From a virus (lineage: Duplodnaviria > Heunggongvirae > Uroviricota > Caudoviricetes), in IMG/VR virus record IMGVR_UViG_3300030055_000004: 37,724 nt of DNA; one strand, given 5' to 3'. Numbering within the stretch: position 1 is the stretch's first letter; the number at the start of each line of letters is the position of its first letter. Both the position numbers and the translations under genes were made by a program. The notes under the pieces are model-generated. The model did no database searches, had not been told where the DNA came from, and worked only from the letters and a program-made list of their open reading frames with translations. This document shows, piece after piece, positions 7,098 to 36,236 of the stretch.

Positions 7098-7155
7098 GGG
7101 TACTTTTTGCACGCATCGGGGTACATTTTGCACACCCTTGGGGTATTTTTTGCAC
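7098..7155. repeat. Three 15-bp direct repeats (iteron-like), putative replication origin
   Basis: GGGTACTTTTTGCAC (7098), GGGTACATTTTGCAC (7119), GGGTATTTTTTGCAC (7141); 21-22 bp period; adjacent AT-rich AAGTA repeats. Confidence 0.75.
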
Positions 7156-7222
7156 AACCTCTATGCAAAAACTTTCACTATGAAAATTAAAGTATTAAAA
7201 TATGTTAAATTTACACTATTTA

Positions 7223-12285: not shown

Positions 12286-12357
12286 ACCTTTGTAGTGTAA
12301 TGGTAGCACGCAAATCTTCAAAATTTGTAAGTCAGGGTTCGAGTCCTTGGGAGGGTG
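12286..12357 (+). tRNA. Opal-suppressor tRNA-Trp(UCA)
   Basis: ACCTTTG TA GTGT AATGGTA GCAC G CAAAT CT-TCA-AA ATTTG TAAGT CAGGG TTCGAGT CCTTG GGAGGGT G; anticodon TCA 12318-12320; A1-U72 and G73 as in bacterial tRNA-Trp; CCA not encoded. Confidence 0.92.
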
Positions 12358-12375
12358 CAAATAATATATGATAAT

Positions 12376-13127: not shown

Positions 13128-13492
13128 AAAAGAAAGGATTTAAAATACATCAATTAGTAGCAATAGCTTTTTTAAATCATATTCCTTGTGGTTATGATGT
13201 AGTTGTAAATCACATAGATGGAAATAGAAAAAATAATAATGTTGAAAATTTAGAATTAATAACTTCAGCAGAGAATGTAGTAGATGGGTTATTAAGAAAT
13301 AATACTAAACCTATTGAAATAAAAAATAATATTAAATACATTTCTCCAAAACAATTTGAAGCTTATTATACTTATAATGAGGAACAAATTTTAATTGGAT
13401 CTTTTGAATCCATTAAAGAATGTACTATTGTTATTGAATCAGTAAACAAAATAGTTAATATAATTAAAACAAAAAATCCTGTATCAAATTAA
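13121..13492 (+). pseudogene. 5'-truncated HNH homing endonuclease remnant
   Basis: Start-less frame: KIHQLVAIAFLNH...VVNHIDGNRKNNNVENLELITSAEN. Confidence 0.7.
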
Positions 13493-13508
13493 GATACAGG
13501 ATTTTTTT
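13471..13508. terminator. Bidirectional intrinsic terminator
   Basis: AAAAAATCCTGTATC aaattaa GATACAGGATTTTTTT between convergent units. Confidence 0.85.
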
Positions 13509-13552: not shown

Positions 13553-14875
13553 TTATAAGTGGTAGATGTAATTATTTAAATATTGTATATTATCCATACT
13601 TGGATCTACAACATATTTTGTTAATTCACCTTTAGTTATAATTGGATTTCCTACTCTATCTAATAAATTCAAACCTGCTTTCTTTATTGGATTTATTAAT
13701 AGTTTTTTTAATGGGGAATCTAATGAATTACGTTCTCATTTATTCATATAATCTTTAGGATTATATTTTCAAATATCTTGTTTTTGAGTAGTAATAAAAT
13801 TATCACCTTGATTAACTATATATTCTAAATGTCCTCCAGCATCTACTCCTCCTAAATCACCTATTATTTCTCCTTCCATACTTCTTATTCCAGTAGTTGG
13901 ATTAAAATCCTTTTTTCTACTATCAATATTAACTTGACGTACAGGTTTTATACTAGGTTCATCTGAAGAAGATGTTGAGAATGTTCTTATATTATTTTTT
14001 TTAGTAGGATAATTTTTATTTATATAATCATTATGAATTCCAAAATCGTTTGTTTTAATTTCACGAAAATCTGTAGGTTTATTTCTACCTAAAAATATAT
14101 CTACATAATCCCCTTTATTTAAATCTGCTGGATTACTTGAACTATATTTAATACTACCATTATAATCATGAATTGCTTTATTAGAAAAAGGTACTTCTCT
14201 AGAACCTGCAGTCTTTAATATATTTTCATCACCAGTTAATAAATATTTATGTGTACTAGAATCAAGAAGAGTATGTTTTAATTTATCCACATTAAAGTCC
14301 CCAGCTCTTAATCCAATCTCTGCTATTTTTCTATCTAAGTTTGTTGCGACAGCTCCTGCTGTTCCTCCAAGAATATATCCAGGATTAGTTAATGCACCAA
14401 TCCCTGGATATTTTGGTAATACATTTTCACCTCATGATTTACCAGTTAATTTCTCGCTAACTTTATCAACTGTTCTACCGCCAATCTCACTACCAATCAT
14501 AGCAGGAAGGGTTCCAGTTATAGTACCAACTAATCCCATAGCAGCATATGGGGCAACTTTTAATTCTCGTTCTTTATCAATACGTTGTTCTTCTGTAAAT
14601 TTAGCCAGACGTTCTCTAGTATTGACATTTTCTTCAGCAATTTTTTTAGATTTTAAAGATTCACCTAATGGTTGTTGTCTTAGAGTTTGATGTATTTGTT
14701 GTGGAGTATTTAAAGATCCAAAGTTTTTAAAATTATATTGTTGCTGCTTAGTTAAAGGTATAGTATTAACTTTCATTTTAATTGGTGCAACTTTAGTATT
14801 ATCATTCCTCTGAATTGCAATCCCTTGTTGTGCTTTTAATATAGAACTTTGTAATTTCTGTATATTCAATCTCAT
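13553..14875 (-). CDS. Leader-bearing putative virion/cargo protein, 440 aa (3 TGA=Trp)
   Basis: Joins track ORFs through TGAs 14432, 13769, 13736: TGKS[W]GE...TNPGYILGG...DAGGH...QDI[W]KYNPKDYMNK[W]. Confidence 0.8.
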
Positions 14876-14877
14876 TA

Positions 14878-15258
14878 TTATTGCATATTTAATTTAGACA
14901 TTCCTAAATATTGTGCACCTAATTGTTGTGGAGTTTTACCTGGATAGTTTTTAGCAAACTCAATACTATTAGTTCTCATTACTCCCCTAGTTCTAGGATT
15001 AACATAATCCATACTATCTACTCTTGTAGGAGTTACTGGATTAGCCATTATAAATTTATTAGCAGCTTCATGATAAGGTCCTCATTTATTATCTGTTATC
15101 ATACCCATTGAATTCTGTGGAGTACTATTCATTTGACCAGCAAATTTACTTAATTGTAATGGATTCTTTTTAAAGTAATCTATAATAACTGGGTTATCTA
15201 CTGAGTTAATAGGGCGGATAACATTACCCATTTGTAATTTTTGTGGATTGTATTTCAT
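14878..15258 (-). CDS. Leader-bearing hypothetical protein, 126 aa (1 TGA=Trp)
   Basis: MKYNPQKLQMGNVIRP...DNK[W]GPYHE...; missing from the track; fills the gap exactly. Confidence 0.75.
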
Positions 15259-15279
15259 TTAATTTATTTATTAATATAT

Positions 15280-16455
15280 CTAGAAAAAAGTTTTTTGAAA
15301 TGCAGCTGTTCGTGTAGGTAATTGAGGTCGTACACTTTCCTTTAACATACCTTGTTTATTATTAGCAATTGCATCTTTTATAAATGCAGGAAAACCTGCT
15401 ATTCCTTTTTTAGTATTTAAATGTAAATCTAACATTGCATATTTAGTTGAATCTGGTAACTTATCATAAGATCCAGTTCCATAATTTTTATTCAGATAAG
15501 ATTTAATTTGTAATTGACCAGCTGCCATTCTATTTTTTAATTCAGCAGCAGCTTCTTGATCAGTAACTCCAAGTTTAGCTCTCTTATCAAACTCAGGATT
15601 TATACCTAACTTTAATCCATAAGCTACTGTATCAGCTCCTTTCTCTATACTTGGATAAGGATGCCATACTTTTTTATTTGGATCTCATCCTTTCTTAATA
15701 CTATTTTCTTGATTTGCTCAATAATTTAAAAATGTATTTTCATCTACTACTTTAGAAGTATTTGGGTTATTTATAATTCCCATGTTATTAAATGTTGGTT
15801 TAGGTAATACTGGATTAATAAGATTAGGTCTAGGTGTATTTAAATCTGTAAAAGAAAAATTAGTCATACCATCATCAGTAAGTGGTTTAACTGTATTGTT
15901 TTGAAGATTAATACCACTTTGTCCTTTTATAATACCGCCTTTTAAAAACATTTTAAAATTATTTTTTGTGGATGGAATTATATTAACTAGTTTTATATTT
16001 GTATTCTTTTTATAATCTTGTTTTGCTTCTTGTAAAACTTCAGGACGTTGATTTAATTTATCACCAACTGTAGTATAATAATCTGCAAAATTTGCATCCT
16101 TACCCATATTAATTACTTCTTTATTTTTAATTGCAGAATTTAATGCATCTTTTCAATTAGAAAAATAAGTTAATTTATTTTGCCCAGGCAATTGTTGGAT
16201 TTGTGGAAATGCTAATTGATTACCTTGTTTATCATCTGTATAAGATGTTAACATAGTACCATATACTCCTTCTTGATTATCTTCAGGTTTAAATTTATAT
16301 TTTAATTCATTGCCAGTATTATTATTTTGTCTTGATATCCAATTTAGATTTTTATTTTTATCATTTAATTGTACTGCTCTATTATAGAAACCTGTAGTAT
16401 CAACTTGTGGTTTAAATATTCCACCTACTTGAAGTTTTTCAATATTTAATCTCAT
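15280..16455 (-). CDS. Leader-bearing modular protein with C-terminal phage lysozyme-like domain, 391 aa (3 TGA=Trp)
   Basis: Three track ORFs in one frame; QENS..KG[W]D..KKVWHPYPSIEKGADTVAYGLKL...GVTDQEAAAEL...YAMLDLHLN...GFPAF. Confidence 0.78.
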
Positions 16456-17009
16456 ACTATATTCATTAAGTTATTTAATAAAGGAGATCTATATTCAATT
16501 ATTCCTCCTTCTTTATGATGTCATTTTTTACTATTCTGTGCAAAGATAGCTCTTTTTTTTGTAAGAGTATTCTTACTATGTGTAAGTGCTTCTGTACTTT
16601 TACCTAATCGTTTTTTAGTTGCAGTAAATTTTCCTTTATTAGCTGGATTAATTTTTATACCTGATGCACCAGATTGATTTTCTCCTGAATATTTATCAGT
16701 ATCTAATGTACCACCTGATTGATCCTTTTTTAATCCTGGGTATTTACGATATACTGCTGATTTTATACCACTAGGATTAGGAGCATTATGTGCTAAACTT
16801 AATGCAGACTTTGCATGTTTTAAATCAGGTATTGGGTATGATCCTTTAGGTGCACCACCAGAAGGACCTGCATATGGGCCAGTTCTTTTACTACCATCAG
16901 CAAATGTTGCCTTTCCAACATTAGATCCACCTGGTTTTTTATGAGCAGCTTCAATATACTTCTTTGAGAAGTGTCCTCCTGCTTTTAATATTTCAATATT
17001 TATTTTCAT
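16446..17009 (-). CDS. Leader-bearing basic two-module protein (TGA=Trp)
   Basis: Modules GPSGGAPKGSYPIPD..HAKSAL and IKINPANKGKFT...KRAIFAQNSKK[W]HH; ends at TAA 16446 or at TGA 16452. Confidence 0.78.
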
Positions 17010-17058
17010 ATGGTTTAATTAATTTAGTTTTTACAGACTTTAAAAATTATGATTAATG

Positions 17059-17259
17059 TGTAAAATTACTAATAAATAATGACATATAAAACAAAAAATA
17101 GTTTTTTATATAAACATTTGATTAATATTATAATAGGTATAAATTATATAAATTTATATTATATATAATACTAAAATAACTTTTTAATATTATTTTTAGA
17201 AGTTTATTTTTAATATTTACTATATATCTTTTTTTAATCATTATTTATTAGTATCTTTG
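17059..17259. promoter_or_regulatory. Divergent promoter pair with shared motif
   Basis: TCATTATTTATTAGTA on + (17238-17253, continuing TCTTTG) and on - (17082-17067, continuing ATTTTA); both run into TAnnTTT(G/A). Confidence 0.6.
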
Positions 17260-17343
17260 TACAATATGTAAATAATACGAAGAATGTCCATAAGTTAAAA
17301 GAAATAAACAAAAAGTTTGTAAAATAAAGTAAAAGAAAAGCGC

Positions 17344-17739
17344 ATGGATGTAAATGCATTATTAGTACCTGCTGGAACTATAATTATTCCACTAGTAGTA
17401 GGATTGAGTTCATACTTGTTTGGGAGACGTAAAAGTACTGCTGATACTAAAAAAATAGAAGCAGAGACTGACAAAATTGATATTGAAAGAAGATTAGAGG
17501 AAGTAGAATTATTTGAAAGAATAAATAAAGCTTTAGAAACTCAAAATGCAAGACTTGAAATCCAAATTAAACAGTTAGGAATAAGAATTCAAGAATTAGA
17601 GATTATAGTAGATAGACAAAATGCAGAACGTTGTTTAGGAGATAACTGCCCTACTAAAATAGCTTACAATAAAATTATGGTAAGTAGAGCAAAAAGAAAA
17701 AAGAAAACAACTGTAATAACAGTTGTACCAGAAGTATAA
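17344..17739 (+). CDS. Membrane-anchored coiled-coil protein (holin/lysis-associated candidate)
   Basis: One N-terminal TM, RRK, coiled coil, C-x4-C. Confidence 0.55.
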   Translation: MDVNALLVPAGTIIIPLVVGLSSYLFGRRKSTADTKKIEAETDKIDIERRLEEVELFERINKALETQNARLEIQIKQLGIRIQELEIIVDRQNAERCLGDNCPTKIAYNKIMVSRAKRKKKTTVITVVPEV

Positions 17740-17747
17740 AAATTTAA

Positions 17748-18665
17748 ATGATAATGAAAATGGGAATGAAAGTAGATAAAGAAAATGATAGTGTACAATA
17801 TAATGATAAAGAACATTTATATATTGATAAAAAATCTGGATTAAAGTGCATATCAGTCACAACTCTAATTGAAAAATTTGCACAACCTTTTAATGAACAT
17901 TTCTGGAGTTCAGTAAAAGCACTTGAAGAACTTGTAGGTGCTGGTATATTTGCTGATACTAAAAAGAAATTAATGATAACTAAAAAATTTGATGCAAAAT
18001 ATGTTGCACAATTTAATATAGAAGCCAAAGATTTTATTAAGAAAAAAGCAGAAATTCTTCAACTATGGAAAAATAAGAATGTTGAAGCATGTGAAAGAGG
18101 GACTATTATCCATAAAATGCATGAAGATTTAAACTTAGGTGGAAGTTCTAAAGAATTAAAACGTTATGGATTAGGAGGTAAATTCAAATGTTATACTAAT
18201 AATGTATTAAAAATTGGAGATCAAGGAATCTACCCAGAATTATTATTAAGTAGAATATCAGAAGATGGAATATTTAGATTAGCTGGACAAGCTGATTTAG
18301 TTATTATAGATGGTAAGGATGTTTACATATTAGATTACAAAACCAATAAAGCTATAAATAAATCTTCATATTTTGATATAAATACAAAGAAAAAACAAAT
18401 GATGCAATATCCTTTAAATACATTGCAGGATTCAAATTATTGGCATTATGCAGTACAACTATCTACTTATGCTTGGATGATTCAAATGTTAGATCCTACA
18501 TTAAATATTGCAGGCTTAATGTTAATTCATTATGATCATGATAATAAAGAAACAATTTATGAATTGGATTATTTAAAAAATGATGTTGAAAGAATGTTAG
18601 GTTATTATAAGGGAACATTAATAAAAGAAAAAGCATATGAAAAACTTAAACCCATTGTATATTAA
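17748..18665 (+). CDS. PD-(D/E)XK nuclease
   Basis: SVTTLI...ACERGTIIH...E...AGQADL...ILDYKTNK...YAVQLSTYA. Confidence 0.85.
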   Translation: MIMKMGMKVDKENDSVQYNDKEHLYIDKKSGLKCISVTTLIEKFAQPFNEHFWSSVKALEELVGAGIFADTKKKLMITKKFDAKYVAQFNIEAKDFIKKKAEILQLWKNKNVEACERGTIIHKMHEDLNLGGSSKELKRYGLGGKFKCYTNNVLKIGDQGIYPELLLSRISEDGIFRLAGQADLVIIDGKDVYILDYKTNKAINKSSYFDINTKKKQMMQYPLNTLQDSNYWHYAVQLSTYAWMIQMLDPTLNIAGLMLIHYDHDNKETIYELDYLKNDVERMLGYYKGTLIKEKAYEKLKPIVY

Positions 18666-19371
18666 AATAGGTATTGGAATATTAATTATAGTATCCATAC
18701 TTTTTAATTTTAAACAATGTAATGATAATAAAATTGCAAAAAGTAATATCATTACGTTAACTGATACTTTAAAAACTTCAAAAAATAAACTTGGAGATGA
18801 AGTTAAATCTAAACAGATACTATTAATGAATATAGATCAATTAAAAAATACTAATAGTGAATTGACAAAAGACATTAATAATTTATCTGTTAAAGATAAA
18901 AAGAATTTAATAGATATTAATCATTTAAATTTAACTATTAATTTATTAAAAGATAGTGTATTAATTTTAAATCAAGATGGTACAGAAGTAGTTATAAATG
19001 ATTCAACAAAAATGTATCCATATACATTTGCACAAACTGATAAGTTTAGAGATATTCAAGGAATAATAAAAGTAACAGCAGATAAAAAACCACAATCAGT
19101 TGTAGGTTTAATAACAGAAGATAAAGTATTTGCTGAAATAGTAATTGGCAAAAAAGAAACAACAAATGGAATTGAAGTATTTGCAACTTCTTCAAATCCT
19201 GCTGTATCAATAACAAATATTCAAGGCAGTATTATAGATCTTACTGCATATAATAAATATCAAAAATCAAAACCTTTCGGAATTGGTTTACAAGTAGGAT
19301 ATGGAATTGGTGGAAGTGGTCTTACCCCTTTTATTGGAATTGGAATTTCATATAACATCATTAAATTTTAA
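18637..19371 (+). CDS. Putative spanin-like envelope/lysis protein
   Basis: N-terminal TM, coiled coil, C-terminal amphipathic beta-hairpin FGIGLQVGYG...PFIGIGISYN. Confidence 0.5.
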   Translation: MKNLNPLYIKIGIGILIIVSILFNFKQCNDNKIAKSNIITLTDTLKTSKNKLGDEVKSKQILLMNIDQLKNTNSELTKDINNLSVKDKKNLIDINHLNLTINLLKDSVLILNQDGTEVVINDSTKMYPYTFAQTDKFRDIQGIIKVTADKKPQSVVGLITEDKVFAEIVIGKKETTNGIEVFATSSNPAVSITNIQGSIIDLTAYNKYQKSKPFGIGLQVGYGIGGSGLTPFIGIGISYNIIKF

Positions 19372-19375
19372 GAAT

Positions 19376-19663
19376 ATGTTAGGACAAGTAAAACAAATAG
19401 TAACAGGTCATATAAACGAACTTCTAAATTTAGAAAAAAGATTATATAAAAAAAGAAAACCAATATGTAATGCTTGCAAATTAAAAACAATAGTAGAAGT
19501 AATGGGAATACAGACTGAACTCTGTAATCCCAAACTTTACTTAAATGTTAACACCAATCAAACATCTGAATATCCTAAAGAAGGATATGTAAAAGGATGT
19601 GGTTGTAGAGTTGAAGCAAGTACAAGAGTAAAAGATAAAAAATGCCCAGTAGGGAAATGGTAA
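19376..19663 (+). CDS. Cys-rich Zn-binding protein
   Basis: ICNAC...LCNP...GCGC...R.KDKKCPVGKW; start moved to ATG 19376. Confidence 0.75.
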   Translation: MLGQVKQIVTGHINELLNLEKRLYKKRKPICNACKLKTIVEVMGIQTELCNPKLYLNVNTNQTSEYPKEGYVKGCGCRVEASTRVKDKKCPVGKW

Positions 19664-19672
19664 TAATTAAAA

Positions 19673-21133
19673 ATGATAATGACAATGAATGTATTATTTG
19701 ATGACAATGCAAAGACTCCACTTATAACAGGAGTGAAATTAATAGGGGATGCAGTAGCAACAACTTTTGGACCTAATGGCAAAAACGTTATAATTAAAAA
19801 TAGAACTGGTATTCATGTTACAAAAGATGGGGCAACAGTTGCTAAGTATGTAAATCACAATGATCCTGCTGTTAGTATGGGTATAGATGTAATAAAAGAT
19901 ATTGCAGTTAAAACTGCTAAAGATGTTGGAGATGGTACAACTACTGCAACTATATTAGCTAGAGAAATTGTTTTAAGTTTATCTAAATCTACTAAACATC
20001 CAATAGAAATATTAAGAATATTGACAGATGATTTAAAAAAGGTAACAGAATATTTAGATAAAAATAAAATAGAAATAAGTACACAAGAAGATTTACTTAA
20101 AGTGGCAACACTTTCTGCTAATAACGATCCTATTCTAGGACAGTTAATCTCTGATACTTATTATAAAGTTGGAAAAGATGGCAGTGTAAATATGGAAGAA
20201 TCTTCAGATATAAATAATTCAGTTGTTTTTTCTGATGGTTTACAAATTGATTCAGGTTTTAGTTCCCCATATTTTATTAATACAGATAAAAATACATGTG
20301 AATTAAATAATGTATTAGTTGCTATTTTTAATGAAAAATTAGTAGAATTAAAACAAGTAATTGATATTTGTAATCAAGCTATTGATGAAAAAAAAGAATT
20401 ATTAATTATAGCTCCAGATATTGCATCTAATATTCTTAGAATGTTATTATTAAATAAAGGTAGTAAGTTAGAATCTTGTACTGTTATATCCCCAGGAAAT
20501 GGAATATATAGAGATACATTATTAGAAGATATTAAAGTAACATTAGGACAAACAATGACTTGTAATAAAGTAATTGTAACTAAAGACACAACAACATTCA
20601 TCGGTTGTATAATAGATGAAACAATAAAACAAAATAAAGTAGAGTCTATTAGATCTTTATTATCTGGTAATGGATTAAGTGAATTTGAAATGCTATTCCA
20701 TAAAAAGAGATTAGCTAATTATTATGGTGGTGTTGCTACTATATTAGTTGGAGGTTATTCTAAAGTAGAAGTTTTAGAAAAGAAAGATAGAGTTGAAGAT
20801 GCTATTGCTGCTGTTAAAGCTGCTTTAGATGGTGGAGTTCTCCCAGGTGGAGGAGTTGCATTACTTCATGCAGCAAGAGATTTGGATTTAGTATTGTTAG
20901 ATAAAATTATTCAAGTACCATTTAATATATTATGGAAAAGTGCTTGTTCTCCTGAAATTTCTCTTAAAGAAGAATTTTGGAATGGATATGATTTTAAAAA
21001 TATAGTAAATGGTAATATGTATGAGATGGGAATTATTGATCCGTTCTTAGTTACAAAGACCGCTTTAGAGAATGCAGTTACAGCAGCATCTTTAATTCTA
21101 ACAAATGGCTGTTCAATAATAAATATGGATTAA
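19673..21133 (+). CDS. groEL: Phage chaperonin GroEL-like
   Basis: TFGPNGKNV, VTKDGATVA, VGDGTTTAT, EKKDRVEDA, GVLPGGG, GIIDP. Confidence 0.95.
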   Translation: MIMTMNVLFDDNAKTPLITGVKLIGDAVATTFGPNGKNVIIKNRTGIHVTKDGATVAKYVNHNDPAVSMGIDVIKDIAVKTAKDVGDGTTTATILAREIVLSLSKSTKHPIEILRILTDDLKKVTEYLDKNKIEISTQEDLLKVATLSANNDPILGQLISDTYYKVGKDGSVNMEESSDINNSVVFSDGLQIDSGFSSPYFINTDKNTCELNNVLVAIFNEKLVELKQVIDICNQAIDEKKELLIIAPDIASNILRMLLLNKGSKLESCTVISPGNGIYRDTLLEDIKVTLGQTMTCNKVIVTKDTTTFIGCIIDETIKQNKVESIRSLLSGNGLSEFEMLFHKKRLANYYGGVATILVGGYSKVEVLEKKDRVEDAIAAVKAALDGGVLPGGGVALLHAARDLDLVLLDKIIQVPFNILWKSACSPEISLKEEFWNGYDFKNIVNGNMYEMGIIDPFLVTKTALENAVTAASLILTNGCSIINMD

Positions 21134-21142
21134 TAAATAAAA

Positions 21143-21499
21143 ATGAATATGAAAAAAGAAATAATGCCCTTATATACAAATGTAATGATTTTACCTTATG
21201 CTTCTAATCCTTATGCTGCATTAACAACTAAAAGTGGATTAAAATTAACTGAAGGTGAATTTGATAGTCAAGATTCTGGAGAACATGAAATACTAGATAA
21301 TTTTATCAAGTGTGCTGAAGTAATTGAAGTAGGACCTGGAACACAATATGTACAAGTAGGGGATGATGTATTTTATGATACTAGATCAGCTAGACCTGTA
21401 CCATTTTTAAGACAAGGATTTTGGAATATTGCAGAACAAAATTTAGTATCTATAATTAATGATAATTTAACAACAAGATTTACAAATGAACGAATATAA
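21143..21499 (+). CDS. groES: Co-chaperonin GroES-like
   Basis: IMPL...TKSGL...AEVIEVGPG..YVQVGDDVFY...IAEQNL, directly after groEL. Confidence 0.8.
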   Translation: MNMKKEIMPLYTNVMILPYASNPYAALTTKSGLKLTEGEFDSQDSGEHEILDNFIKCAEVIEVGPGTQYVQVGDDVFYDTRSARPVPFLRQGFWNIAEQNLVSIINDNLTTRFTNERI

Positions 21500-21722
21500 T
21501 ATGGATAAAGTATATTTCTTGCCAGGTGACAGAGTACAACTGAAACAAGATATACCTAATAAACCGGTTATGATAATTGTTAAGAAAAAAACTATGACAA
21601 TTAAACCAAAAGATGAAGATAAAAGTACTTACTTTCAAGGTATGTTATGTATGTGGTTTACTACTACAGGAGAATTACTAGAACATGTATTCTCAACTAA
21701 AGACTTACAGAAACTTAAATAA
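21486..21722 (+). CDS. YodC/DUF2158-like small beta protein
   Basis: PGDRVQLK...PVM...CMWFT..G.L...F...DL. Confidence 0.6.
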   Translation: MNEYNMDKVYFLPGDRVQLKQDIPNKPVMIIVKKKTMTIKPKDEDKSTYFQGMLCMWFTTTGELLEHVFSTKDLQKLK

Positions 21723-21731
21723 AATTTATTA

Positions 21732-23060
21732 ATGAAATATTTAAATAGAAAATATCAACAAGGAGGTGCTGCACCTGCAGAAGGTCAACAACAACAAATA
21801 GCACAACAAGTAGCTAAAGCATTACAAAGTGGTGCACAACCAGAAGAAGTATTACAAGAATTAGTAAAACAAGGTATGCCTCAAGAACAAGCTTCACAAA
21901 TGATACAATCAATTATGCAACAATTAAAAGGTGGAACTCCTTCTGCAAAGAATGGCGCTAAATTAGAATTTATACAACGTCTTCAAAAAGGTGGAATGTA
22001 TGTTAGACCTGCAGCAAAAGATGCAACTAATGTTTCATCAAAAGAACCTGTAAAACCTATGTCCAGACCAACAAATGGAAGTATTAGTTCATGGGAAGAA
22101 CGTACTCCTGCAGTAGGAACAAAAGCAAATCCAAAACAATTACCAACAGTAACTGTAACTGCTAAAAAAATAGTAGCTAAACCTACAGGATCTACACCTC
22201 CTCAACAAACTAAAGTAGTATCTAAAACAACTGTAAAATCTGCAGTTAAACCTTCTCAACCTATTGATAATGTTCATTCACCTGTAGAAGCAAATAATGC
22301 TAATTTAACTCCTGATCAAGTTAAATGGGTTCAAATCCATTTAAATAGTTTAGGACATAATTTAGTGGTAGATGGTAAATTTGGTAAAGAAACTATGAAA
22401 GCAATTGGAGAAATTCAAGCAACTGCTGGATTACAACCAAATGGTAAATGGGATGAGGCAACTAGAGATGTATTTAAAACTTTAGATCGTACTGCAAGAG
22501 ATGCAAAACAATCTTATTTAAATACAATGCAACAAAATATTTCTGCAGGAGAAATACCAGAAAATCCATCAGTATTACCAGAAACAATAACTACACAACC
22601 AAGTATTTGGGAAGGTGCTACATTTGCTAAAAAAGGTGGTTATCTACAAAAAGGGGCTAAAGTGACTAAACCTATCCCAGTTTTAAAAGGTAAACCAAAT
22701 CCTGTATCAGATGATGCTGTACCTACTAAAAATGAAGGTGGAACTGATATGAATCCAAAAGATTGGAAAAAAGGTGTACCAAATACTTCTAGTAAAGATA
22801 AAAATATACCATCTGATGATAAACAACTTACTCCTTGGAAAAAAGAAAAAGGTGGTTATTTAAAAAATAAAACTAAACCAAAAGTTGATCCAATTGTAGA
22901 AAAGAAAGATATGTCTACAATGATTAAACCTAAAATGGCTAAAGGTTCTAAAATGAAAGCTAAAAAATGTTTAAAAGGATGTGGATGTGGTACTAAACTA
23001 CATAAAAATGGTGGAATTCTATCAACAGTATGTTCATGCTGTGGTGGTCAATGTAATTAA
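21732..23060 (+). CDS. xxGG-motif modular protein with peptidoglycan-binding domain
   Basis: Repeated QQGG/LKGG/QKGG/KKGG; VKWVQ..LN.LG..LVVDGKFG.ET..AI...Q...GL.PNG; Cys-rich C-terminus. Confidence 0.75.
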   Translation: MKYLNRKYQQGGAAPAEGQQQQIAQQVAKALQSGAQPEEVLQELVKQGMPQEQASQMIQSIMQQLKGGTPSAKNGAKLEFIQRLQKGGMYVRPAAKDATNVSSKEPVKPMSRPTNGSISSWEERTPAVGTKANPKQLPTVTVTAKKIVAKPTGSTPPQQTKVVSKTTVKSAVKPSQPIDNVHSPVEANNANLTPDQVKWVQIHLNSLGHNLVVDGKFGKETMKAIGEIQATAGLQPNGKWDEATRDVFKTLDRTARDAKQSYLNTMQQNISAGEIPENPSVLPETITTQPSIWEGATFAKKGGYLQKGAKVTKPIPVLKGKPNPVSDDAVPTKNEGGTDMNPKDWKKGVPNTSSKDKNIPSDDKQLTPWKKEKGGYLKNKTKPKVDPIVEKKDMSTMIKPKMAKGSKMKAKKCLKGCGCGTKLHKNGGILSTVCSCCGGQCN

Positions 23061-23077
23061 TATTAAAAAATAAATAT

Positions 23078-23659
23078 ATGCTAAAATTATTTTCTTATGA
23101 TAATATGAAGAAGGAAGTAGTTATTAATGAAGCGGACGTCCTTTTAATTAAGGAGTTCGCTGATTTATGAACTAATGAAAGAAATGAAACTAAAAAAGAT
23201 CCTACGGGTAAAAATAAAACTAAAGCATTTAGAGAATTTACTTATATATATTGTGCTATTGATTGGAGTTCTCCATATGCTAAATATTCGGAACAAGAAA
23301 GGCACGAAGAAGCTTTAAGAGACGGTGGTTTAGAACAAGAAGAATTTGATGATGAAGTATTCAGATGTGCTTGTAGAAAATACAAACTAATTCAAGAAAC
23401 TTCTAAGATTGGTAAATTATTACAATCACAAAAAAATATGGTAGATAGAATGACTATCTATTTTGATAATCTTGATTTTGATGAAAGAGATACTGTAACA
23501 GGTAAACCTATATTTAGAATGAAAGATGTTCTTGATGAAATGTCAAAAACTGGAAAAGCTTTAGAAAATATAGAAATATTAGAAGAATCTTATAAAAAAG
23601 AACAAGAAAAAGAAAGTTCACTTAGAGGTGGTCGCATCGGAGGACGATTTGATTCATAA
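23078..23659 (+). CDS. Conserved pre-terminase protein, 193 aa (TGA=Trp; small terminase candidate)
   Basis: MLKLFSYD...LLIKEFADL[W]...AFREFTYIY..IDWSSPY; TGA at 23168; function by position only. Confidence 0.75.
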
Positions 23660-23661
23660 TT

Positions 23662-26016
23662 ATGGCTACTAAAAAAGAATTAGAAATAGCTGCAAAAGCT
23701 GCAAAAAAAACAATAGTTATAGGAAAAAAAGAAGTAGAAAAAAAGAATTTTGAGAAACAACTCAAAATAATTGAAGCAACTATCCCTACTATTATAGAAG
23801 AAGAGGAAGTTAATGAAGTAAAAATAATTAAAACTAAAGCTCAATTAGAAGTTGAGGAAATTGAATTACTTCGAGAACAATTAGAACTGGATAAGAAAAA
23901 AGAAAAACTTAGACGTAATAAAAATGAATGAGATGTAAAATTAGGTGAACCAATTGTATTTTTTGATCCTGAATTATCTTATGAACTTACAGGTTATAGA
24001 CCTATTACAATGACTAAAGGTTTGGATTTTGTATCAGCACCTTTTACAGAAGCTGGTAGAATCTATGATGAAACTGGAAAATATAGTACATTTAGAGAAG
24101 GTTCTAAATTATATGATGAATTCTGGGATACTCAAATGGAGAGATGTAAAGATGGATATACTGTTGGAAAATATACAATAACTGGAGATAATTATTTCTG
24201 GTTAAATTTTTATAGATTACTTAATGTAACTAATATTCAAAAAGCTGCAGAAGGTCGCCTTGAAACATTCCCAGATTTCTTTTCTAAACAATATGAATAT
24301 TTTCATTATATAGATCTTTGTGAAAAATCTGGATTTGATGTTGGATCATTAAAAGCACGTGGTGTTGGTTTTTCAGAAATTGCTGCATCTTTAGGAGTAC
24401 GAGTTTATACTACAGTTGCTAAATCAAGATGTTTATATGCTGCTGCTGCTGAGGGATTTGTAAGAGATGTACTTGATAAAGCTTGGTTACAATTAGAGTT
24501 TCTAAATACTGAAACACAAGGTGGTTTTGAACATGTTAGAATGAAGAAAGATTCAGACATGAAAAAACGTGCTTCTAAAGTAACTACAGAAGGGACTGAA
24601 TTTGGTTGGATGGCTACTTTAGAAGGTAAAGTTGTAGATAAACCTCGTAAATTACGTGGTGGACGTTTAGAACGTTTGTTCCTTGAAGAAGCTGGATCTA
24701 ATCCTATATTAGTAACTTCTTATAATCAATCTGAAGCCTTAGTAAATATTTTAGGTAAACGTATTGGTTCAAGATTTGTTTGGGGTACAGGTGGTGATGA
24801 AGGACCTCAATTAGCAGGTTTAGCTGGTATGTTTTATAATCCTAGTGAATATAATATGTTACCATATTACCATAATCATACTGAAAATGGTCAATATGTA
24901 TATACAGGATTTTTTATTCCAGCATATACAATGCATATTCCTTCATGTGATTCACGTGGAGTTTGTAATGAAATAGATGCTAAAATTTATTATAATTCTA
25001 TAAGAGTTAAAAAATCATCTAATGCAAAAAACTTACTTGAATATAAATCAGAGTATTGTTTTACACCAGAAGAAGCACTTATTAGACAAGGGGATAATAG
25101 ATTTGATACTGAGTTATTAGCTGAACAAATTGCTAATATTGAATTACATAAAACAGTTGAACTTCCTAAAATGGCTAAATTAAATTGAGAATTTAGTAAA
25201 GAAATAGGTGGAGCTAATAGACAAAAAGCACCCTCTCTTGAATACACTGATAAAGGTTTAATTACTATAGTTGAAGAACCTTGAACAGATGAAAATAATA
25301 TACCTTATAATAATTTATATGTAGCTGGTATTGACTCTATTGATAGTGATGAAACTTCATCTACAGGTCAAAAAGATGTATCATCATTTTGTATTGTAAT
25401 TAAACGTAGACAATTTGGATTAAAAGATCCTAAATATGTAGCTATGTATAAGTATCGTCCTAAAGATGTACGTGATGCATATGATACTGCAATGAAACTT
25501 TTAATGTATTACAATTGTAAAGCAGTAATTGAAACTTCTCGTGTATCTTTAATAACACATTTTAAAACTGAAAAAAAATTAAATTTACTTTTTTTACGAC
25601 CTCGTGCAACAACAAGTGATGTAAATAAAGCAAATACTAGAATGTATGGTTGTTCTGCAACTGTACCAAATATTAATCATTATCTTGATTTAGTTGAAAA
25701 CTATGTTAGTGATTATTGTCATGAAATAACTATTCTTGATATGTTAAATGAATTAATTAAGTATTCTTTTTTAAATAAAAGAAAATTTGATATTGTAGCA
25801 GCAATGGGAATGTGTGAATTAGCAGATGAAGAATTAATGGGAAATGCTCCAAGATCATCTACAAAAGTCAATAAAGAATGGCAAGATATTGGTTATTATA
25901 CTGATGAAAATGGTTATAAACAATTTGGAGTTATTCCTAAAGTTTTACCACAACATAATCCAAATTTTACTCAACCTAATTATTCTTGAATGAACAATGA
26001 CAACACTAGAAACTAA
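23662..26016 (+). CDS. terL: Terminase large subunit, 784 aa (4 TGA=Trp)
   Basis: One frame through TGAs 23929, 25186, 25282, 25987; LKARGVGFSE (Walker A), LFLEEAG (Walker B), YVAGIDSID nuclease motif lying between the track fragments. Confidence 0.93.
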
Positions 26017-31067: not shown

Positions 31068-34000
31068 ATGGAACAAAATATATTACTAGATAGTACAGAA
31101 TCAATTACTTCTGAAGAATTAATAAGTACACCTACTATACAAAAAAATATAGTAGAAAATAATATATTACTTAGTGATATAGACTCTAATACTTTTATAA
31201 TAAAACCTATTATAAAAAGTGATGTAATTAATACTAATCTTTTACTTAATGAACAAACTTTAAATACTATTACATTAAATCCAGTAGAAAGTCATAAAAA
31301 TATTATACAATCTAGTATATTAATTAATAATTTAGAAACAACAATTAGTTCTATTATTCCAATTAAAGATGTAGATAATGTACCAGTGAAAGAAAATATA
31401 TTATTAAATCAAATTGAAATACCTGTACATGATAATCTTATAACAACTTCAAGACCACTCAATACAGATTCAATAAACAATGATGATTTAATTTCTGGAT
31501 ATGAAAATACATTTATTCCTTCAGTTAATTTGACAGATGGTAATTATTTTCCATCTGACCCAGAACAATTACCAAGGATAACATCTTTAGAAGAATTATT
31601 AAAATATTTATCAGAAATAATGATAAGATTTAGTACTTCTCCTGATTATTATCAACAAGATGATTTTGCAATATTTATAAAAACTATTACTAATGCATTA
31701 ATTGATTTATATCTTAGAACTCCTGTTTCAGATGGTGAATTACAAAGTTTACTAAATTTATTATATACTAAAGTTGATAAGATTGAAGGTAAAGAATTAA
31801 GTACTAATGATCTTACAAATGAATTAAAAGAATTATATGATTTAGCTTATAGTCAAACTCATACTCATGATAATAAATATGCATTAGATTTAGTTGAAGG
31901 TTCAAATAAAGGGGATCAAGATTTAAGTAATTTAGTAACTAAAGATGAATTACCAGTAATACCTTCTTTAGATGGATATGCTACAGAATTATTTGTTACA
32001 AATATAACAGATACTAAAGAAGATAAAGGAGTTGCACAAATATTAATTACTGATTTACATTTAGGAGAAATAATTACTCATAATTCAAATGAGTTTGCTT
32101 TAATACTTACAGAAGATGAAAATTATGTTACAGATATTGAAAAAGTAAATCTTCATAATCCTCATTCTGATGATCAAGATCTAAGTGGATTAGTAGTTAA
32201 AGTTGAAGGAAAATCTCTTATATTAAATACTGAAATAGAAAGGTTAACTACTTTACACAATGTAGATATTAGTGGAAAAGTTGATAAAGTTGAAGGTAAA
32301 AGTTTAATACTTGATAGTGAGATAACTAGATTAACTTCAGTTTATAATGTTGACATAACTGGAAAAGTAGATAAAGTTGATGGGAAATCTTTAGTATTAG
32401 ATACTGAAATAGCAAAAATACATTCGTTACATGCTGATGATCAGGATTTAACTCCATATCAATTATTATCAGAAAAAGGTATTAATAATGGATACACTCC
32501 ATTAGATTCTGGCGGTAAAGTTGCATTACAATATTTACCATCAACATTATTAAAATATATAGGAACATGAGATATTATTAATAATGATCCTATTTTAATA
32601 TCACCTGATTTAACTAAAGTTAGTAATGTATATACAATAGTTGGCACTGGTACTAGATTTGGTATTAATTTCAAACCAGGAGATTGGTTAATATATAATT
32701 CAGATGGTATACCAGAAAAATCTGATAATTCAGATGATGTAACTATGGTAAATGGACAAACAGGTATAGTAACTATTACTAAATCTGATGTAGGTTTATC
32801 TTTAGTAGATAATACTACTGATTTAAATAAACCAATATCTAATGATACACAATTAGCATTAAATTTAAAAGTTGATAAAGTAATTGGAAGTAGATTAATA
32901 ACAACTGCTGAATCAGTTATATTAGGAAATACATCAAATATAAATACTGGTGATCAAACTTTAACTAGTTTAGGTGCACAAGCAGAACTTAGTGGTCATG
33001 GCTATGTTCGATTCATTGGAAAACTAGCAATATATGATGAATCATTATTTTCTAATACTATTGGAAATTACAATACTGCATTGGGTTATCAATCATTGTA
33101 TGCCAATACAATTGGTAGTGGTAATTTAGCCATAGGCTATCAAGCAATGTTCAAAAACATTGATGGTGGAACTAACTTAGCCTTTGGCAATTTGTCATTA
33201 TTCAATAACTTATCAGGTACAAATAATTTTGCAATAGGTAATAATACATTATATGCTAATACAATTGGTACAGATAATTTTGCATTAGGTAATTATGCAT
33301 TGTACAATAATACTGATGGTATATCTAATATAGCTATCGGTACTAGTGCATTAGGTGTAAGTACATCTACAATTGGAAATACTGCAATTGGTACTAATTC
33401 AATGTCTAATGCTACTTTCGGTAGTCATAATACTGCAATTGGAGCTATGAGTTTAATTGCAAATACAACAGGGACATCTAATGTATCAATCGGATATCAA
33501 AGTCTTTATACTAATACAGAAGGTAGTTATAATGTTGGTATAGGAGATACAGTGTTAAACAATAATGTTTTGGGTGGCTATAACATTGCATTAGGTGATA
33601 TGGCAGCCTCTTACTGTGATAATGGTGTAAATCTTCTTACTAACATTGATCATTCAATTTTTATAGGTGGTCTAACTGAAGCATTACATAATAACAGTAC
33701 AAATGAAATTGTTATAGGTTACACAGCAAAAGGTTCAGGTTCAAATACAATAACATTAGGTAATAATGATGTACTAAAAACAATGTTACGTGGTGACATT
33801 TATGTAAATGGTGTTCTATTATCTACTCTGTACAGTTCAATTGCAAATGCTTTTCCTGGGTTTGGTACTACACATGTATTATCAGCTTATGGTGATCATT
33901 TACATACTGGTGTATACCAACCAGTAGGAAATTATTTGACATCATTTACTGAGACTGATCCAGTATTTACTGCATGGGATAAAAGTACAGGCATAACTAT

Positions 34001-36236
34001 AACTAAATCACAAATAACTGATTTTCCGACTATTCCATCTTCACAAGTTCAAACAGATTGGAATGCTACATCTGGAATAGGAGTATTACTAAATAAACCT
34101 ACTCAGTTATCCCAATTTACAAATAATTTAGGTAATTACGGTAATTGGATAACAGGCATTAGTAGTGGAATGGTAACTACCGCATTAGGTTATACGCCCT
34201 ATAATTCAACTAATCCATCAGGTTATATTAATTCTCTTTTAGGTGCAGTATTAACAGATCAATCCACCCAACAAATAATAGGGTCAAGTGCAAGTCGATT
34301 GGGTAAATTGTGGGGTAGTGATGTTGATGTATCGGGAAATATAAAGATAAATGCTTCCGCTCCATTTATAAATATGTACTCGACTTTATGGAGTACGTCA
34401 ACATTTATTCAAACAGGGGTTAATGTAGGAGCTACTGATGGTGGTGATTATTTTAATATCTATAATCCAGCAGGAAAGGGATTTTCATATACGAGAGGTG
34501 GAGTAGTTGACTTATCTATTAGCCCATCAGGAATAGTAAACTTTTTAAATACCCCAACTATTGCAGGAGTGTCTTTAGATTCTAAGTATATCCAAAACAA
34601 CCCATCATCTGTTCAAAGTGGTAGTGTGTGGGTGGATGGAAGGATAATAGGCAATCGAATAGATAATTACGACCCCACCTTAACAGCTGGCGATGATATA
34701 GCATATTCAATAGGCAAACAATTCGGGAGTGGAACTTCTGGGTTTCTTGGTTGGAGAAACAACTCAGGAGTACCTTATATGTATATTGAGACATACGGAG
34801 GAGTAACTCCAATCAGTATTTTTGGTAGCAATTTTAATGTCAACGCATTAGGAGCAGCAGTCTTTACATCAACAGTTACAGCAACTCAATTTAATGCCAA
34901 TAATTTTATTGTTGCAGCTTCATATCTTGGTGATTCAAAATTATATTTAGGAGGAATTCCAGATATTTCTTGGGGTTATACTATAGATACTTTATCAAGT
35001 GGTTTAAATTTTAAATCAACAAACGGTGCATCTAAATCAATTAAATTTGATGATAGTGGGAATATAAACACAGATGGAACAGTTACAGCAACTCAATTTA
35101 ATGGTAGTGGTGCTGGTTTAACAGGAACTGCTAGTAGTTTATCAGTTAATTATGCTAATAGTGCAGGAAGTATTTCAAATTTCACTGTAAGAATTGATAG
35201 GTCAGATAGTAATGTTTATAACTTAGCTGGTAGAGGAACTGGTATATATGCAATTTCAGATTATGGTGGTGATGGTCCTGGTGCAATGTATTTAAATTTG
35301 TTACATATGACAAATGGTGGTGATGTTGCATTTCAGATTGCTGGTGGATACACAAGTGATAATATGTATTTTAGAGGTACAAGTAATTTAGCTGGTGGGG
35401 ATAGTTATACACCATGGAGAACTGTAATACATAGTGGAAATATTGGTAGTCAGTCAGTAAACAACGCTAGTTACTCCAATAACGTTATTATGCATGCTAA
35501 TAGAACAGATGGAGCATTTTATCAGGTACTATGGGGTACCGATAGTAATGTAAGTTCAATGTATTCTTGTGCAGGTGTTCAAATTCAATCTAGCACTGGA
35601 ACAATCAAAGCAACAGTTTTTTCAACAGGTTATATTCAAATTGTTGAAAAGCAAATTAATGAACCCGCTACGAATGCCACCTCTGCTATTGCCTACAACT
35701 ACACTGGTTATGCAGGCGGGACTACCCAGTTCAGAAACTTTGACGTATTTAATGGTAAAATGGAACACATAGTAACTTTCAGAGGAGAAGATTTAGCTAC
35801 AATTTATTATGGTCCTGGATATTTTAATCAAGGTGATGATAGTACTGGTGGTAGTTCAGGAGCACTTCAAGTATCTGGAGGTATTTATGCATCTGGTAAA
35901 TGTTGGATTGATTCCACTCTTCATGTTGATGCTGATACATTTATAGCTGGCATTATAACAGCAACTAATTTTATAATGCCATCTGATATTAAACTTAAAA
36001 CTAACATAACACCTATCACTAAAGATTATTCTAATATTCAATTTAAAGAATATGAATTCAAAAATAAACTTGGTGAAAAAAGATATGGTGCTATTGCACA
36101 AGAGTTATTAGAATCAGGTAATGATGAATTCGTATCAGGTAATGAAGAAATAGGATATTCTGTAAAGTATATAGATTTACTTATTGCAAAAATATCTAAT
36201 CTAGAAACTAGAATTAAACAATTAGAAAATAATTAA
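31068..36236 (+). CDS. Tail fibre / receptor-binding protein with C-terminal S74-type intramolecular chaperone, 1722 aa (1 TGA=Trp)
   Basis: Joined at TGA 32568 (KYIGT[W]D...GDWLIY); KVDKVEGKSL repeats; 14-aa NTxGxxNxAxG beta-roll repeats; SDIKLKTNI...YGAIAQEL...coiled coil. Confidence 0.88.
34871..35103 (+). repeat. 26-bp exact direct repeat inside the tail fibre gene
   Basis: AACAGTTACAGCAACTCAATTTAATG at 34871-34896 and 35078-35103 (TVTATQFN). Confidence 0.85.

Follow-up and report, generated by a model that had tools for sequence, protein, structure and literature searches.

Short peptides that guide proteins into a protein shell are known from phages and beyond. In bacteriophage T4, internal proteins IPI-III and Alt share a short N-terminal capsid targeting sequence and are packed in the head and injected; the targeting sequence, which acts via the scaffolding core, is cleaved off at L/I-x-E by the prohead protease gp21. 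In the giant phages phiKZ and SPN3US, a dedicated prohead protease recognizes a defined motif and cleaves the long propeptides of ejection and inner-body proteins there, and the cargo-loading peptides of encapsulins, which are short, conserved and contain glycine, dock diverse cargo inside an HK97-fold shell and remain uncleaved. Crassvirales, the most abundant human gut phages, hold megadaltons of cargo protein in their particles, cargo (or ejection) proteins being those that travel within the particle and are driven into the host before the DNA. For instance, cargo protein 1 of PhicrAss001, gp45, has been detected in virions by mass spectrometry and cryo-EM, a single chain of it has been modelled from the tail to the capsid, and its N-terminal part has been located in the tail (Bayfield et al., 2023, PMC10172136; PDB 7QOG, 7QOI, 7QOJ, 7QOL and 8CKB; Pfam PF25725, crAss_CARG1).

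We analysed a window of 37,724 nucleotides (the whole stretch of DNA under study) from a distant, uncultured crAss-like gut phage, in which five genes, A to E, begin with the motif K-[LYF]-Q-x-G-[GN] (Table 1). This leader is probably an address tag, previously undescribed, on proteins that are likely to be packed and injected; we found no paper describing a shared cargo-protein tag. Like the T4 targeting sequence, it is a short N-terminal peptide common to unrelated, here putatively packaged, proteins and portable in principle, but the crassvirus leaders lack the L/I-x-E consensus and no S78 protease was found in MT835470.1 or crAss001. With the propeptides of phiKZ and SPN3US it has in common the presence of an N-terminal targeting part on a variety of (here putatively) packaged proteins, yet here the motif comprises 10-13 residues and also recurs internally. 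The encapsulin peptides may be the closest analogue of a retained docking tag, although they are C-terminal, follow another consensus and belong to a non-viral compartment in which the shell is the receptor. The likeness to gp45 is twofold: gene A has two gp45 modules and gene B one module of a gp45 homologue, and gp45 itself begins with a basic stretch in which hydrophobic-x-x-G-G falls at residue 20, and carries numerous further copies inside the chain where modules meet. Unlike in gp45, the modules are here divided among several small genes that form a separate inverted cassette, the motif is more sharply defined, as K-[LYF]-Q-x-G-G with constant spacing from the Met, and not one but at least nine unrelated proteins carry it. 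The paper on the gp45 structure does not mention a shared motif (PMC10172136).

Recoded genes and their N-terminal tag

The late genes of this phage, whose genome has a GC content of about 27%, read TGA as Trp. Under translation table 11 the cassette falls into eight ORFs, and under table 4 the minus strand of positions 13553-17009 carries four genes, A to D; the four tandem genes were recovered because TGA was taken as Trp. All five shared N-termini lie where the earlier note had placed them. The Trp codons of the cassette genes are TGA in nine cases and TGG in two, and the terminase and portal genes are alike in this respect; the usage common to the cassette and the late structural genes may, as regards timing, support the reading of the cassette products as cargo. 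A tRNA with anticodon TCA is likely to be the opal suppressor that permits translation of the TGA-containing cassette and late genes. Gene E, in which none of the Trp codons is TGA and six are TGG, is not recoded, which we count against its reading as cargo.

The inverted A-D cassette lies ~7-10 kb upstream of the terminase gene (23662-26016) and gene E just upstream of it, with one small gene (23078-23659) in between. The cassette had been credited with a promoter and a terminator of its own; the terminator was confirmed, and promoter-like sites were at chance level in a sigma-70 scan, the coverage of which excludes Bacteroidota promoters.

Table 1. Positions of the tagged genes, their tags and neighbouring signals in the window
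Feature	Position	Strand	Description
tRNA	12286..12358	+	anticodon TCA, 73 nt, tRNA-SeC by ARAGORN; context, outside the tag
Intrinsic terminator	13471..13507	-	15-pair stem, then T run; closes the A-D cassette
Gene D	13553..14875	-	440 aa, 3 TGA; longer 18-residue tag variant, Q-Q-G end
Tag of gene D	14822..14875	-	codons 1-18, longer variant
Gene C	14878..15258	-	126 aa, 1 TGA; tag variant with G-N end
Tag of gene C	15223..15258	-	codons 1-12
Gene B	15280..16455	-	391 aa, 3 TGA; tag at residues 1-12
Tag of gene B	16420..16455	-	codons 1-12
Gene A	16446..17009	-	187 aa, 2 in-frame TGA; tag, then two small modules
Tag of gene A	16974..17009	-	codons 1-12
Gene E	21732..23060	+	442 aa, no TGA; tag at residues 1-12
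Tag of gene E	21732..21767	+	codons 1-12

The tag ends at residue 11-18 and is unique to A-E among window ORFs of at least 60 aa. A strict form of the pattern, [LFYIMV][QK]xG[GN] inside the first 16 residues, was matched by four of these 51 ORFs against 0.32 expected (Poisson P = 3e-4), and all strict matches begin at residue 8. The second Gly is frequently replaced by N, S or Y, or missing (G-N, Q-G, N-S-G, T-G-Y). Synonymous codons differ between the leaders of A-E, which are therefore not recent DNA copies of one another, and the Gly codons of the tag are not A-rich. When nine tagged proteins of the phage, five in the window and four outside, were compared without their first 20 residues, none matched another at E <= 0.01, so that the description of the sequences downstream of the leader as unrelated was borne out. 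Residues 1-22 of one of the outside proteins (454 aa) are disordered in an AlphaFold2 model (pLDDT below 50). Predicted disorder and occurrence on unrelated folds suggest that the tag behaves as a free linear motif.

Payload modules and their relation to gp45

Two of the five genes are homologous to proven or gp45-type cargo. The modules of gene A match gp45 residues 273-428 (tblastn E = 1e-7; blastp E = 6e-12), including the chain 7qog_M, 'Cargo protein 1 gp45', in the PDB (phmmer E = 2.2e-7), and gene A has 1678 phmmer matches in 1.84 billion representatives. Homology in gene B covers the C-terminal half (183-376), which matches a portion of the gp45-type cargo protein whose gene immediately follows that of the muzzle in phage cr128_1 (tblastn E = 4e-6; blastp E = 2.6e-10); the lysozyme-like payload proposed earlier corresponds to a weak match of gene B to phrog_4290 (E = 0.0017). 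Homology to the gp45 family through modules other than CARG1 was found for genes A and B only, genes C, D and E having no match to gp45 modules. The portal-binding CARG1 domain (PF25725), which is strong on gp45, cr128_1 C1 and IAS gp060 (E = 2e-66 to 5e-48), was detected neither in A-E nor in tagged proteins of 454, 1322 and 620 aa from the same phage.

The remaining payloads are diverse. The body of gene C had no Pfam match and no tblastn match in phages, its sole PHROG match being weak (phrog_1123, E = 0.024). Gene D, which has 16 relatives, contains a glycine-rich segment at about residues 110-180 that possibly inserts in the membrane. Its homologue in the syntenic cassette of MT835470.1 (blastp E = 1e-6) is a tagged protein of 983 aa with a Glucosaminidase domain (PF01832, E = 3e-9), of which gene D corresponds to the N-terminal half; in the same cassette, a 123-aa ORF begins with the gene D variant of the tag. 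The peptidoglycan-binding payload foreseen from the window is solid in gene E (PG_binding_1 at 195-246, E = 1.6e-12), the protein also having five further K-x-G-G motifs in low-complexity linkers and a Cys-rich C-terminus. At the gene E position of MT835470.1, where the flanking genes are orthologous, there is a gene with the tag at its start and an unrelated body.

The internal motifs listed in the earlier note are present and exceed expectation: GG occurs internally 19 times versus 10.9 in composition-preserving shuffles (P = 0.01), and [KQH]x0-2GG 13 times versus 4.8 (P = 0.0004). As to their supposed position at domain boundaries, this holds for the two copies in gene A (GG at residues 99 and 168), which mark module ends and align with GG motifs of gp45. 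Across the same phages, hydrophobic-x-x-G-G reaches 0.5-0.75 per 100 aa in cargo-type families versus 0.08 in a nozzle-like structural family, and in other crassvirus families it is dense in gp45-type but not in gp46-type proteins.

Distribution of the tag in the phage and its relatives

The window phage was extended via contigs that are 99.96-100% identical across their overlaps. Directly downstream of its muzzle gene (PF25731), which is the canonical cargo position, it has tagged genes of 454, 106, 1322 and 620 aa. Genes for DUF192, Peptidase_M15_3 and homing endonuclease, all without the tag, are interspersed among them, and a protein of 2873 aa, likewise untagged, comes next. The tagged proteins of this phage thus number at least nine, five in the window and at least four outside it. 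Genes A-D and E themselves sit in two satellite loci, outside the block that directly follows the muzzle gene and precedes the virion RNA polymerase genes, whereas the four other tagged genes and those of 80 related loci do occupy this cargo block.

Orthologues in MT835470.1 keep the tag at a body identity of 22-47%. In the 80 related loci, the tag stands at the start of 163 of 467 cargo-block ORFs (35%) against two of 429 upstream structural ORFs (0.5%); after dereplication, the counts are 47/163 versus 2/142 (Fisher P = 2e-12). Tagged payloads reach lengths of 1322-1554 aa, and no tag is present on the giant proteins that occupy the polymerase position. From this distribution, the tag appears to mark cargo proteins, the giant leaderless proteins at the polymerase position excepted.

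Competing readings of the tag

The explanation to which we give about an even chance is that A-E are cargo proteins sharing a retained docking or ordering tag that is bound in trans by one virion component. Genes A-D and E would belong to the cargo protein set of the phage and, to judge from homology, their products are presumably present in virions. Each of these proteins begins with a short, disordered, basic peptide that typically ends at about residue 11-13, and the same type of motif punctuates the module junctions of gp45-type cargo proteins across Crassvirales. As a short linear recognition motif, the tag would be bound by a common component, most likely in the portal or the tail channel, flagging the protein as cargo and setting its N-terminus for early exit. 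The tagged set may act on the envelope, given its peptidoglycan-binding, lysozyme-like and glucosaminidase modules and its glycine-rich, putative membrane segments. Of the ordered segments of gp45, one (425-552) begins at A-F-G-G and the other (214-245) comes after S-A-Y-G-G at 206-210; both thus begin at or just after a GG motif, which may link the motif to docking. Against this explanation, A-E lie in the satellite loci and have no Pfam-defined CARG1 domain, and at least nine tagged proteins would oversubscribe a site of only six or 12 copies.

Alternatively, the tag and the internal G-G could be cleavage sites, in the manner of the T4 internal proteins and the giant-phage propeptides: a protease of the phage, such as the zincin-like domain reported in crassvirus virion proteins, or one of the host would take off the leader and divide multi-module cargo into units. 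The leader is indeed short, of fixed length and ends in small residues, its terminal Gly-Gly fitting a cleaved propeptide, and modules fused in gp45 are separate genes in the window phage, each with its own leader. Furthermore, a p-crAssphage protein annotated with a zincin-like protease begins with the tag, and a published proposal that some crassvirus virion polyproteins are cleaved names a zincin-like protease domain (10.1101/2020.03.07.982082), which keeps cleavage in play and qualifies the essentially correct remark that the window has no recognisable protease. However, the variable second Gly (N, S, Y or absent) would be more in keeping with a tight turn than with a protease that strictly requires G-G, and gp45 motif 425-428 is intact within the continuous modelled chain 425-552 of the mature virion, where one chain runs from tail to capsid (PMC10172136). 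The protease search, run in relatives, recovered neither Peptidase_C39 (PF03412; control positive in seven genomes) nor S78 (PF04586) or ClpP (controls worked) from MT835470.1 and the complete crAss001 genome, nor C48 (PF02902) from MT835470.1; S77 (PF03420) matched neither of these two genomes nor the control genomes, and the 2873-aa protein of the window phage has no HExxH motif. We therefore favour docking or ordering over cleavage, which we judge unlikely. The earlier interpretation accordingly divides: a portable N-terminal tag on interchangeable virion payloads is supported by homology and synteny, and GG-directed cleavage is not directly supported.

The motif could also be a built-in tight turn or hinge at the start or end of a module, aiding unfolding and refolding through the tail with no common partner. 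Two-residue turns typically read G-G, G-N or S-G, the G-G often runs straight into a conserved hydrophobic strand of the module that follows, and one copy of the motif lies inside the folded CARG1 domain. Yet the residues upstream of G-G (K, an aromatic residue or Leu, and Q) are the same before unrelated bodies and stay conserved as the bodies diverge, and the leader is not packed onto the body in AlphaFold2, which makes this reading a somewhat improbable one. The short N-terminal peptide with its G-G end and the peptidoglycan-acting payloads superficially recall a bacteriocin-type export signal, by which lysis or envelope factors would be secreted via a host ABC transporter with a C39 domain. 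Such leaders have 15-30 aa, an invariant G-G end and hydrophobic residues at -4, -7 and -12, whereas the tag has 10-13 aa, Q or K at -4 and N, S or Y for the second G; besides, the payloads reach 1322-1554 aa and include homologues of a virion cargo protein, and neither MT835470.1 nor crAss001 yielded a C39 domain. This leader class is disfavoured, and export of this kind is very improbable. With double-glycine (C39/PCAT) leaders and Ulp1/adenain sites the tag shares only a peptide ending in G-G and lacks their defining features, so that the analogies drawn earlier with these systems fall away. That chance or composition created the motif at A-rich gene starts, in a genome of low GC content where Lys/Asn-rich N-termini are common, is barely conceivable, given the single register and excess of the motif in the window, its Gly codons, the orthologues that keep it and its strict positional specificity; the distribution over the 80 loci refutes it.

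Taken together, these observations lead to a proposal that we put forward tentatively, at somewhat less than even confidence: K-[LYF]-Q-x-G-G is either a general, portable packaging-ejection signal of large crAss-like phages that one receptor, located in the portal or the tail channel, recognizes, or the substrate motif of an unrecognised virion protease. Such a receptor would direct the envelope-acting cargo to the tail lumen, from which it would leave first, and any protein to which the tag is fused would be loaded as well. A tag of 10-13 residues conserved on unrelated cargo proteins over hundreds of phages makes the choice of cargo, its storage in capsid or tail and its ordered release accessible to simple experiments, and provides a sequence rule to locate cargo genes outside the canonical block, such as the cassette of the window. 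If portable, it could be used to load proteins into phage particles directed at Bacteroidota and, if either form of the proposal is true, crassvirus cargo would have its first described sorting code.

A recoded cassette and its shared leader

The window has a GC content of about 27%, and its terminase (23662–26016, with TGA read as Trp) is most similar to that of MT835470.1, an uncultured human-gut phage (51% identity), the next best matches being to Crassvirales (27%–30%). The terminase of a second relative, MT835539.1, matches in three separated pieces (contig L004, 30009–34241), which suggests introns, inteins or inserted mobile genes. Recoding of TGA as Trp matters here because it defines the genes and puts the cassette in one group with late genes of the virion type. 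The minus strand at 13553–17009 yields eight ORFs under table 11 and four genes under table 4. Among the Trp codons of the cassette, nine are TGA and two TGG, a habit common to the terminase, portal and neighbouring late genes; the early genes and gene E use TGG only, and no gene employs TGA as a stop codon. A tRNA with the anticodon TCA is encoded in the window. On L016, a contig of the same phage beyond the window, an in-frame TGA lies inside the leader of a gene for a 454-aa cargo protein (7129–7161, K-K-Y-Q-W-G-G), the translation of which would halt within the leader without a suppressor tRNA. The earlier note assigned the cassette its own promoter motif and terminator: the terminator, a strong one, was confirmed 3' of gene D, and a sigma-70 scan, which does not cover Bacteroidota promoters, gave nothing above chance.

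The products of genes A to E share a basic start peptide ending in K-[LYF]-Q-x-G-[GN], hereafter the tag, which opens none of the other ORFs of at least 60 aa in the window. Within the first 16 residues, the strict pattern was seen four times versus 0.32 expected from its internal frequency (P = 3e-4), and it always starts at residue 8. The codons of the leaders differ at synonymous sites among the tagged genes; the leaders are therefore not recent DNA copies. Once the first 20 residues are removed, no pairwise similarity is found among the tagged proteins. The internal K/Q-x-G-G motifs listed previously are indeed present, and more abundant than in shuffled sequences. The tag is a real and strongly selected feature.

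Features of the window and of the cargo block that follows the muzzle gene on overlapping contigs
Feature	Position in window	Strand	Product	Tag
tRNA, anticodon TCA	12286–12358			
Gene D	13553–14875	-	440 aa	18-residue variant
Gene C	14878–15258	-	126 aa	tagged
Gene B	15280–16455	-	391 aa	tagged
Gene A	16446–17009	-	187 aa	tagged
Gene E	21732–23060	+	442 aa	tagged
Cargo block, place 1			454 aa	tagged
Cargo block, place 2			DUF192	untagged
Cargo block, place 3			Peptidase_M15_3	untagged
Cargo block, place 4			106 aa	tagged
Cargo block, place 5			homing-endonuclease-like	untagged
Cargo block, place 6			1322 aa	tagged
Cargo block, place 7			620 aa	tagged
Cargo block, place 8			2873 aa, position of virion polymerase proteins	untagged

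Kinship with crassvirus cargo proteins

Residues 39–168 of gene A match residues 273–428 of gp45, the cargo protein 1 of PhicrAss001 (tblastn, E = 1e-7; blastp, E = 6e-12), a relationship also recovered with the PDB chain 7qog_M, ‘Cargo protein 1 gp45’ (phmmer, E = 2.2e-7), and its two internal G-G motifs align with those of gp45 at 332 and 427. Relatives of the gene A modules number 1678 and come in many architectures; about one in four begins with hydrophobic-x-x-G-G, and a G-G often stands immediately before the conserved first strand of a module. Gene B (residues 183–376) matches the gp45 homologue of the phage cr128_1, whose gene directly follows the cr128_1 muzzle gene; a related-locus search with gene B returned no match, an AlphaFold2 model of residues 225–391 built without an alignment reached a pLDDT of 44.5, and the case for a lysozyme-like protein is weak. 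Genes A and B are related to cargo protein 1 of crassviruses, but the domain that defines it in Pfam is absent from both. In tblastn searches against phages, genes C and D had no match and gene E matched through its peptidoglycan-binding domain (PG_binding_1) only. Gene D matches the N-terminal half of a tagged 983-aa protein with a glucosaminidase domain, encoded in a syntenic inverted cassette of MT835470.1. The genes flanking gene E are orthologous to their MT835470.1 counterparts, and the gene at its position there has kept the tag on an unrelated body.

Several further properties of these genes and their surroundings deserve mention. The final 36 residues of gene E (3' end, 22980–23060), which follow a highly basic tail, contain about eight Cys and may form a metal-binding or disulfide knot. 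The glycine-zipper region of the cr128_1 cargo protein 1 (P0006, residues 102–155) resembles Pfam Bacteriocin_IIc below the cut-off (E = 1.9e-5), which fits a membrane-inserting segment in gp45-type proteins, and similar Gly-rich stretches occur in genes D and F. Two membrane-anchored proteins, one with an N-terminal hydrophobic helix and a coiled coil and the other with DUF6808, lie between the cassette and the chaperonin (17344–17739 and 18637–19371) and could be lysis or spanin-like genes. The chaperonin itself, GroEL-like (19673–21499 region; Cpn60_TCP1, E = 3.8e-43), is located just upstream of gene E; it was considered as a reader of the tag and dropped, as it had no match in MT835470.1, where tags persist. 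The small gene that follows at the co-chaperonin position has no Pfam match and does have an orthologue in MT835470.1.

On metagenomic contigs that show 99.96%–100% identity wherever they overlap the window or one another, the same phage could be followed through the genes for the capsid, the ring, a nozzle-like protein (646 aa) and the muzzle (PF25731, 1415 aa) into the cargo block, which brings its tagged proteins to at least nine. All four post-muzzle tagged proteins have a tagged orthologue in MT835470.1, with body identities of 22%–47%. In this lineage the muzzle appears to be divided between two genes (L014, 10528–16718), the 646-aa protein having a conserved nozzle-type N-terminus and the 1415-aa protein the Pfam domain crAss_MUZ; a corresponding pair occurs in MT835470.1 (1143 aa and 1590 aa). 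Here (L016, 8483–9539 region), the first tagged gene is directly followed by a DUF192 (COG1430) gene; the same arrangement recurs in most of 80 related loci, and the DUF192 product could be a chaperone or reader of the tagged proteins. The homing-endonuclease-like gene (L016, 10001–10417), inserted between two tagged cargo genes, has a faint NUMOD-type Pfam match.

Most of the 704 relatives of the 454-aa protein open with a run of basic residues, after which comes K-Y-Q-x-x-G, K-K-G-Q-G-G or a similar motif; K-Y-Q-N-S-G is another variant of the tag. In 80 viral contigs retrieved with this family, the tag pattern opens 64% of the orthologues and, at the second to fourth places downstream, 32%–52% of the ORFs, the latter percentages being too low because simple ORF calling took in spurious frames, versus 2 of 429 ORFs across the six places upstream; after dereplication, the counts are 47/163 on the cargo side and 2/142 upstream (Fisher P = 2e-12). 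In the same phages, hydrophobic-x-x-G-G occurs 0.5–0.75 times per 100 residues in cargo-type families and 0.08 times in the nozzle-like family; the motif is dense in the gp45-type proteins of p-crAssphage, crAss002, IAS virus and cr3_1, but not in gp46-type proteins. We are fairly confident that tagged proteins of the A–E type are cargo-class proteins with a common selected tag.

Docking, cleavage or a hinge

Mass spectrometry and cryo-EM have established gp45 as a virion cargo protein, with one part attached to the portal within the capsid and another bound in the tail barrel, the N-terminal part residing in the tail lumen (PMC10172136). The proposal of the earlier note that the leader is an address tag is plausible in light of this homology and of synteny. 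The main rival, in which the tag and the G-G motifs are cleavage sites, would account for the fixed length of the leader and for the occurrence here, as separate tagged genes, of modules fused in gp45, and polyprotein processing with a zincin-like protease domain has been proposed for crassvirus virion proteins (10.1101/2020.03.07.982082). However, the second Gly varies, the modelled gp45 chain 425–552 begins with an intact A-F-G-G, and the published model traces a single gp45 chain from tail to capsid (PMC10172136). Proteases of the C39, S78 and ClpP families were not found in the relatives searched, crAss001 and the possibly incomplete 117-kb MT835470.1, nor was C48 in MT835470.1; in a search for the zincin-like protease, HExxH occurred neither in the 2873-aa protein nor in residues 1–452 of the giant protein that follows, and no Pfam or PHROG match was obtained. 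We consider cleavage improbable. Across the window, the one sign of a peptidase comes from a 1722-aa protein (31068–36236) that weakly matches Peptidase_S74, a tail-fibre chaperone domain that cleaves itself.

That the motif is only a structural hinge or turn, a reading hard to tell from docking by computation, seems rather unlikely. The tag might correspond to the unassigned 14-residue peptide present six times at the PhicrAss001 muzzle, though a peptide containing a helix agrees poorly with the turn-like G-G/G-N pattern. In function the tag is like the capsid targeting sequence of T4, the propeptides of giant phages and the loading peptides of encapsulins, but on its features it does not appear to belong to any of these, nor to the C39-type or Ulp1-type leaders; we found no description of the motif in the literature.

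Conserved before unrelated bodies, disordered in a model based on 54 sequences and confined to one functional class, the tag behaves as a short linear motif read in trans. A docking or ordering signal is favoured because both ordered, virion-bound gp45 segments of PhicrAss001 start at or just past such a motif, the tagged proteins of this phage look envelope-acting and the giants at the polymerase position are untagged. With about even odds for the statement as a whole, the tag would mark proteins as cargo and set their N-termini for early exit from the particle.
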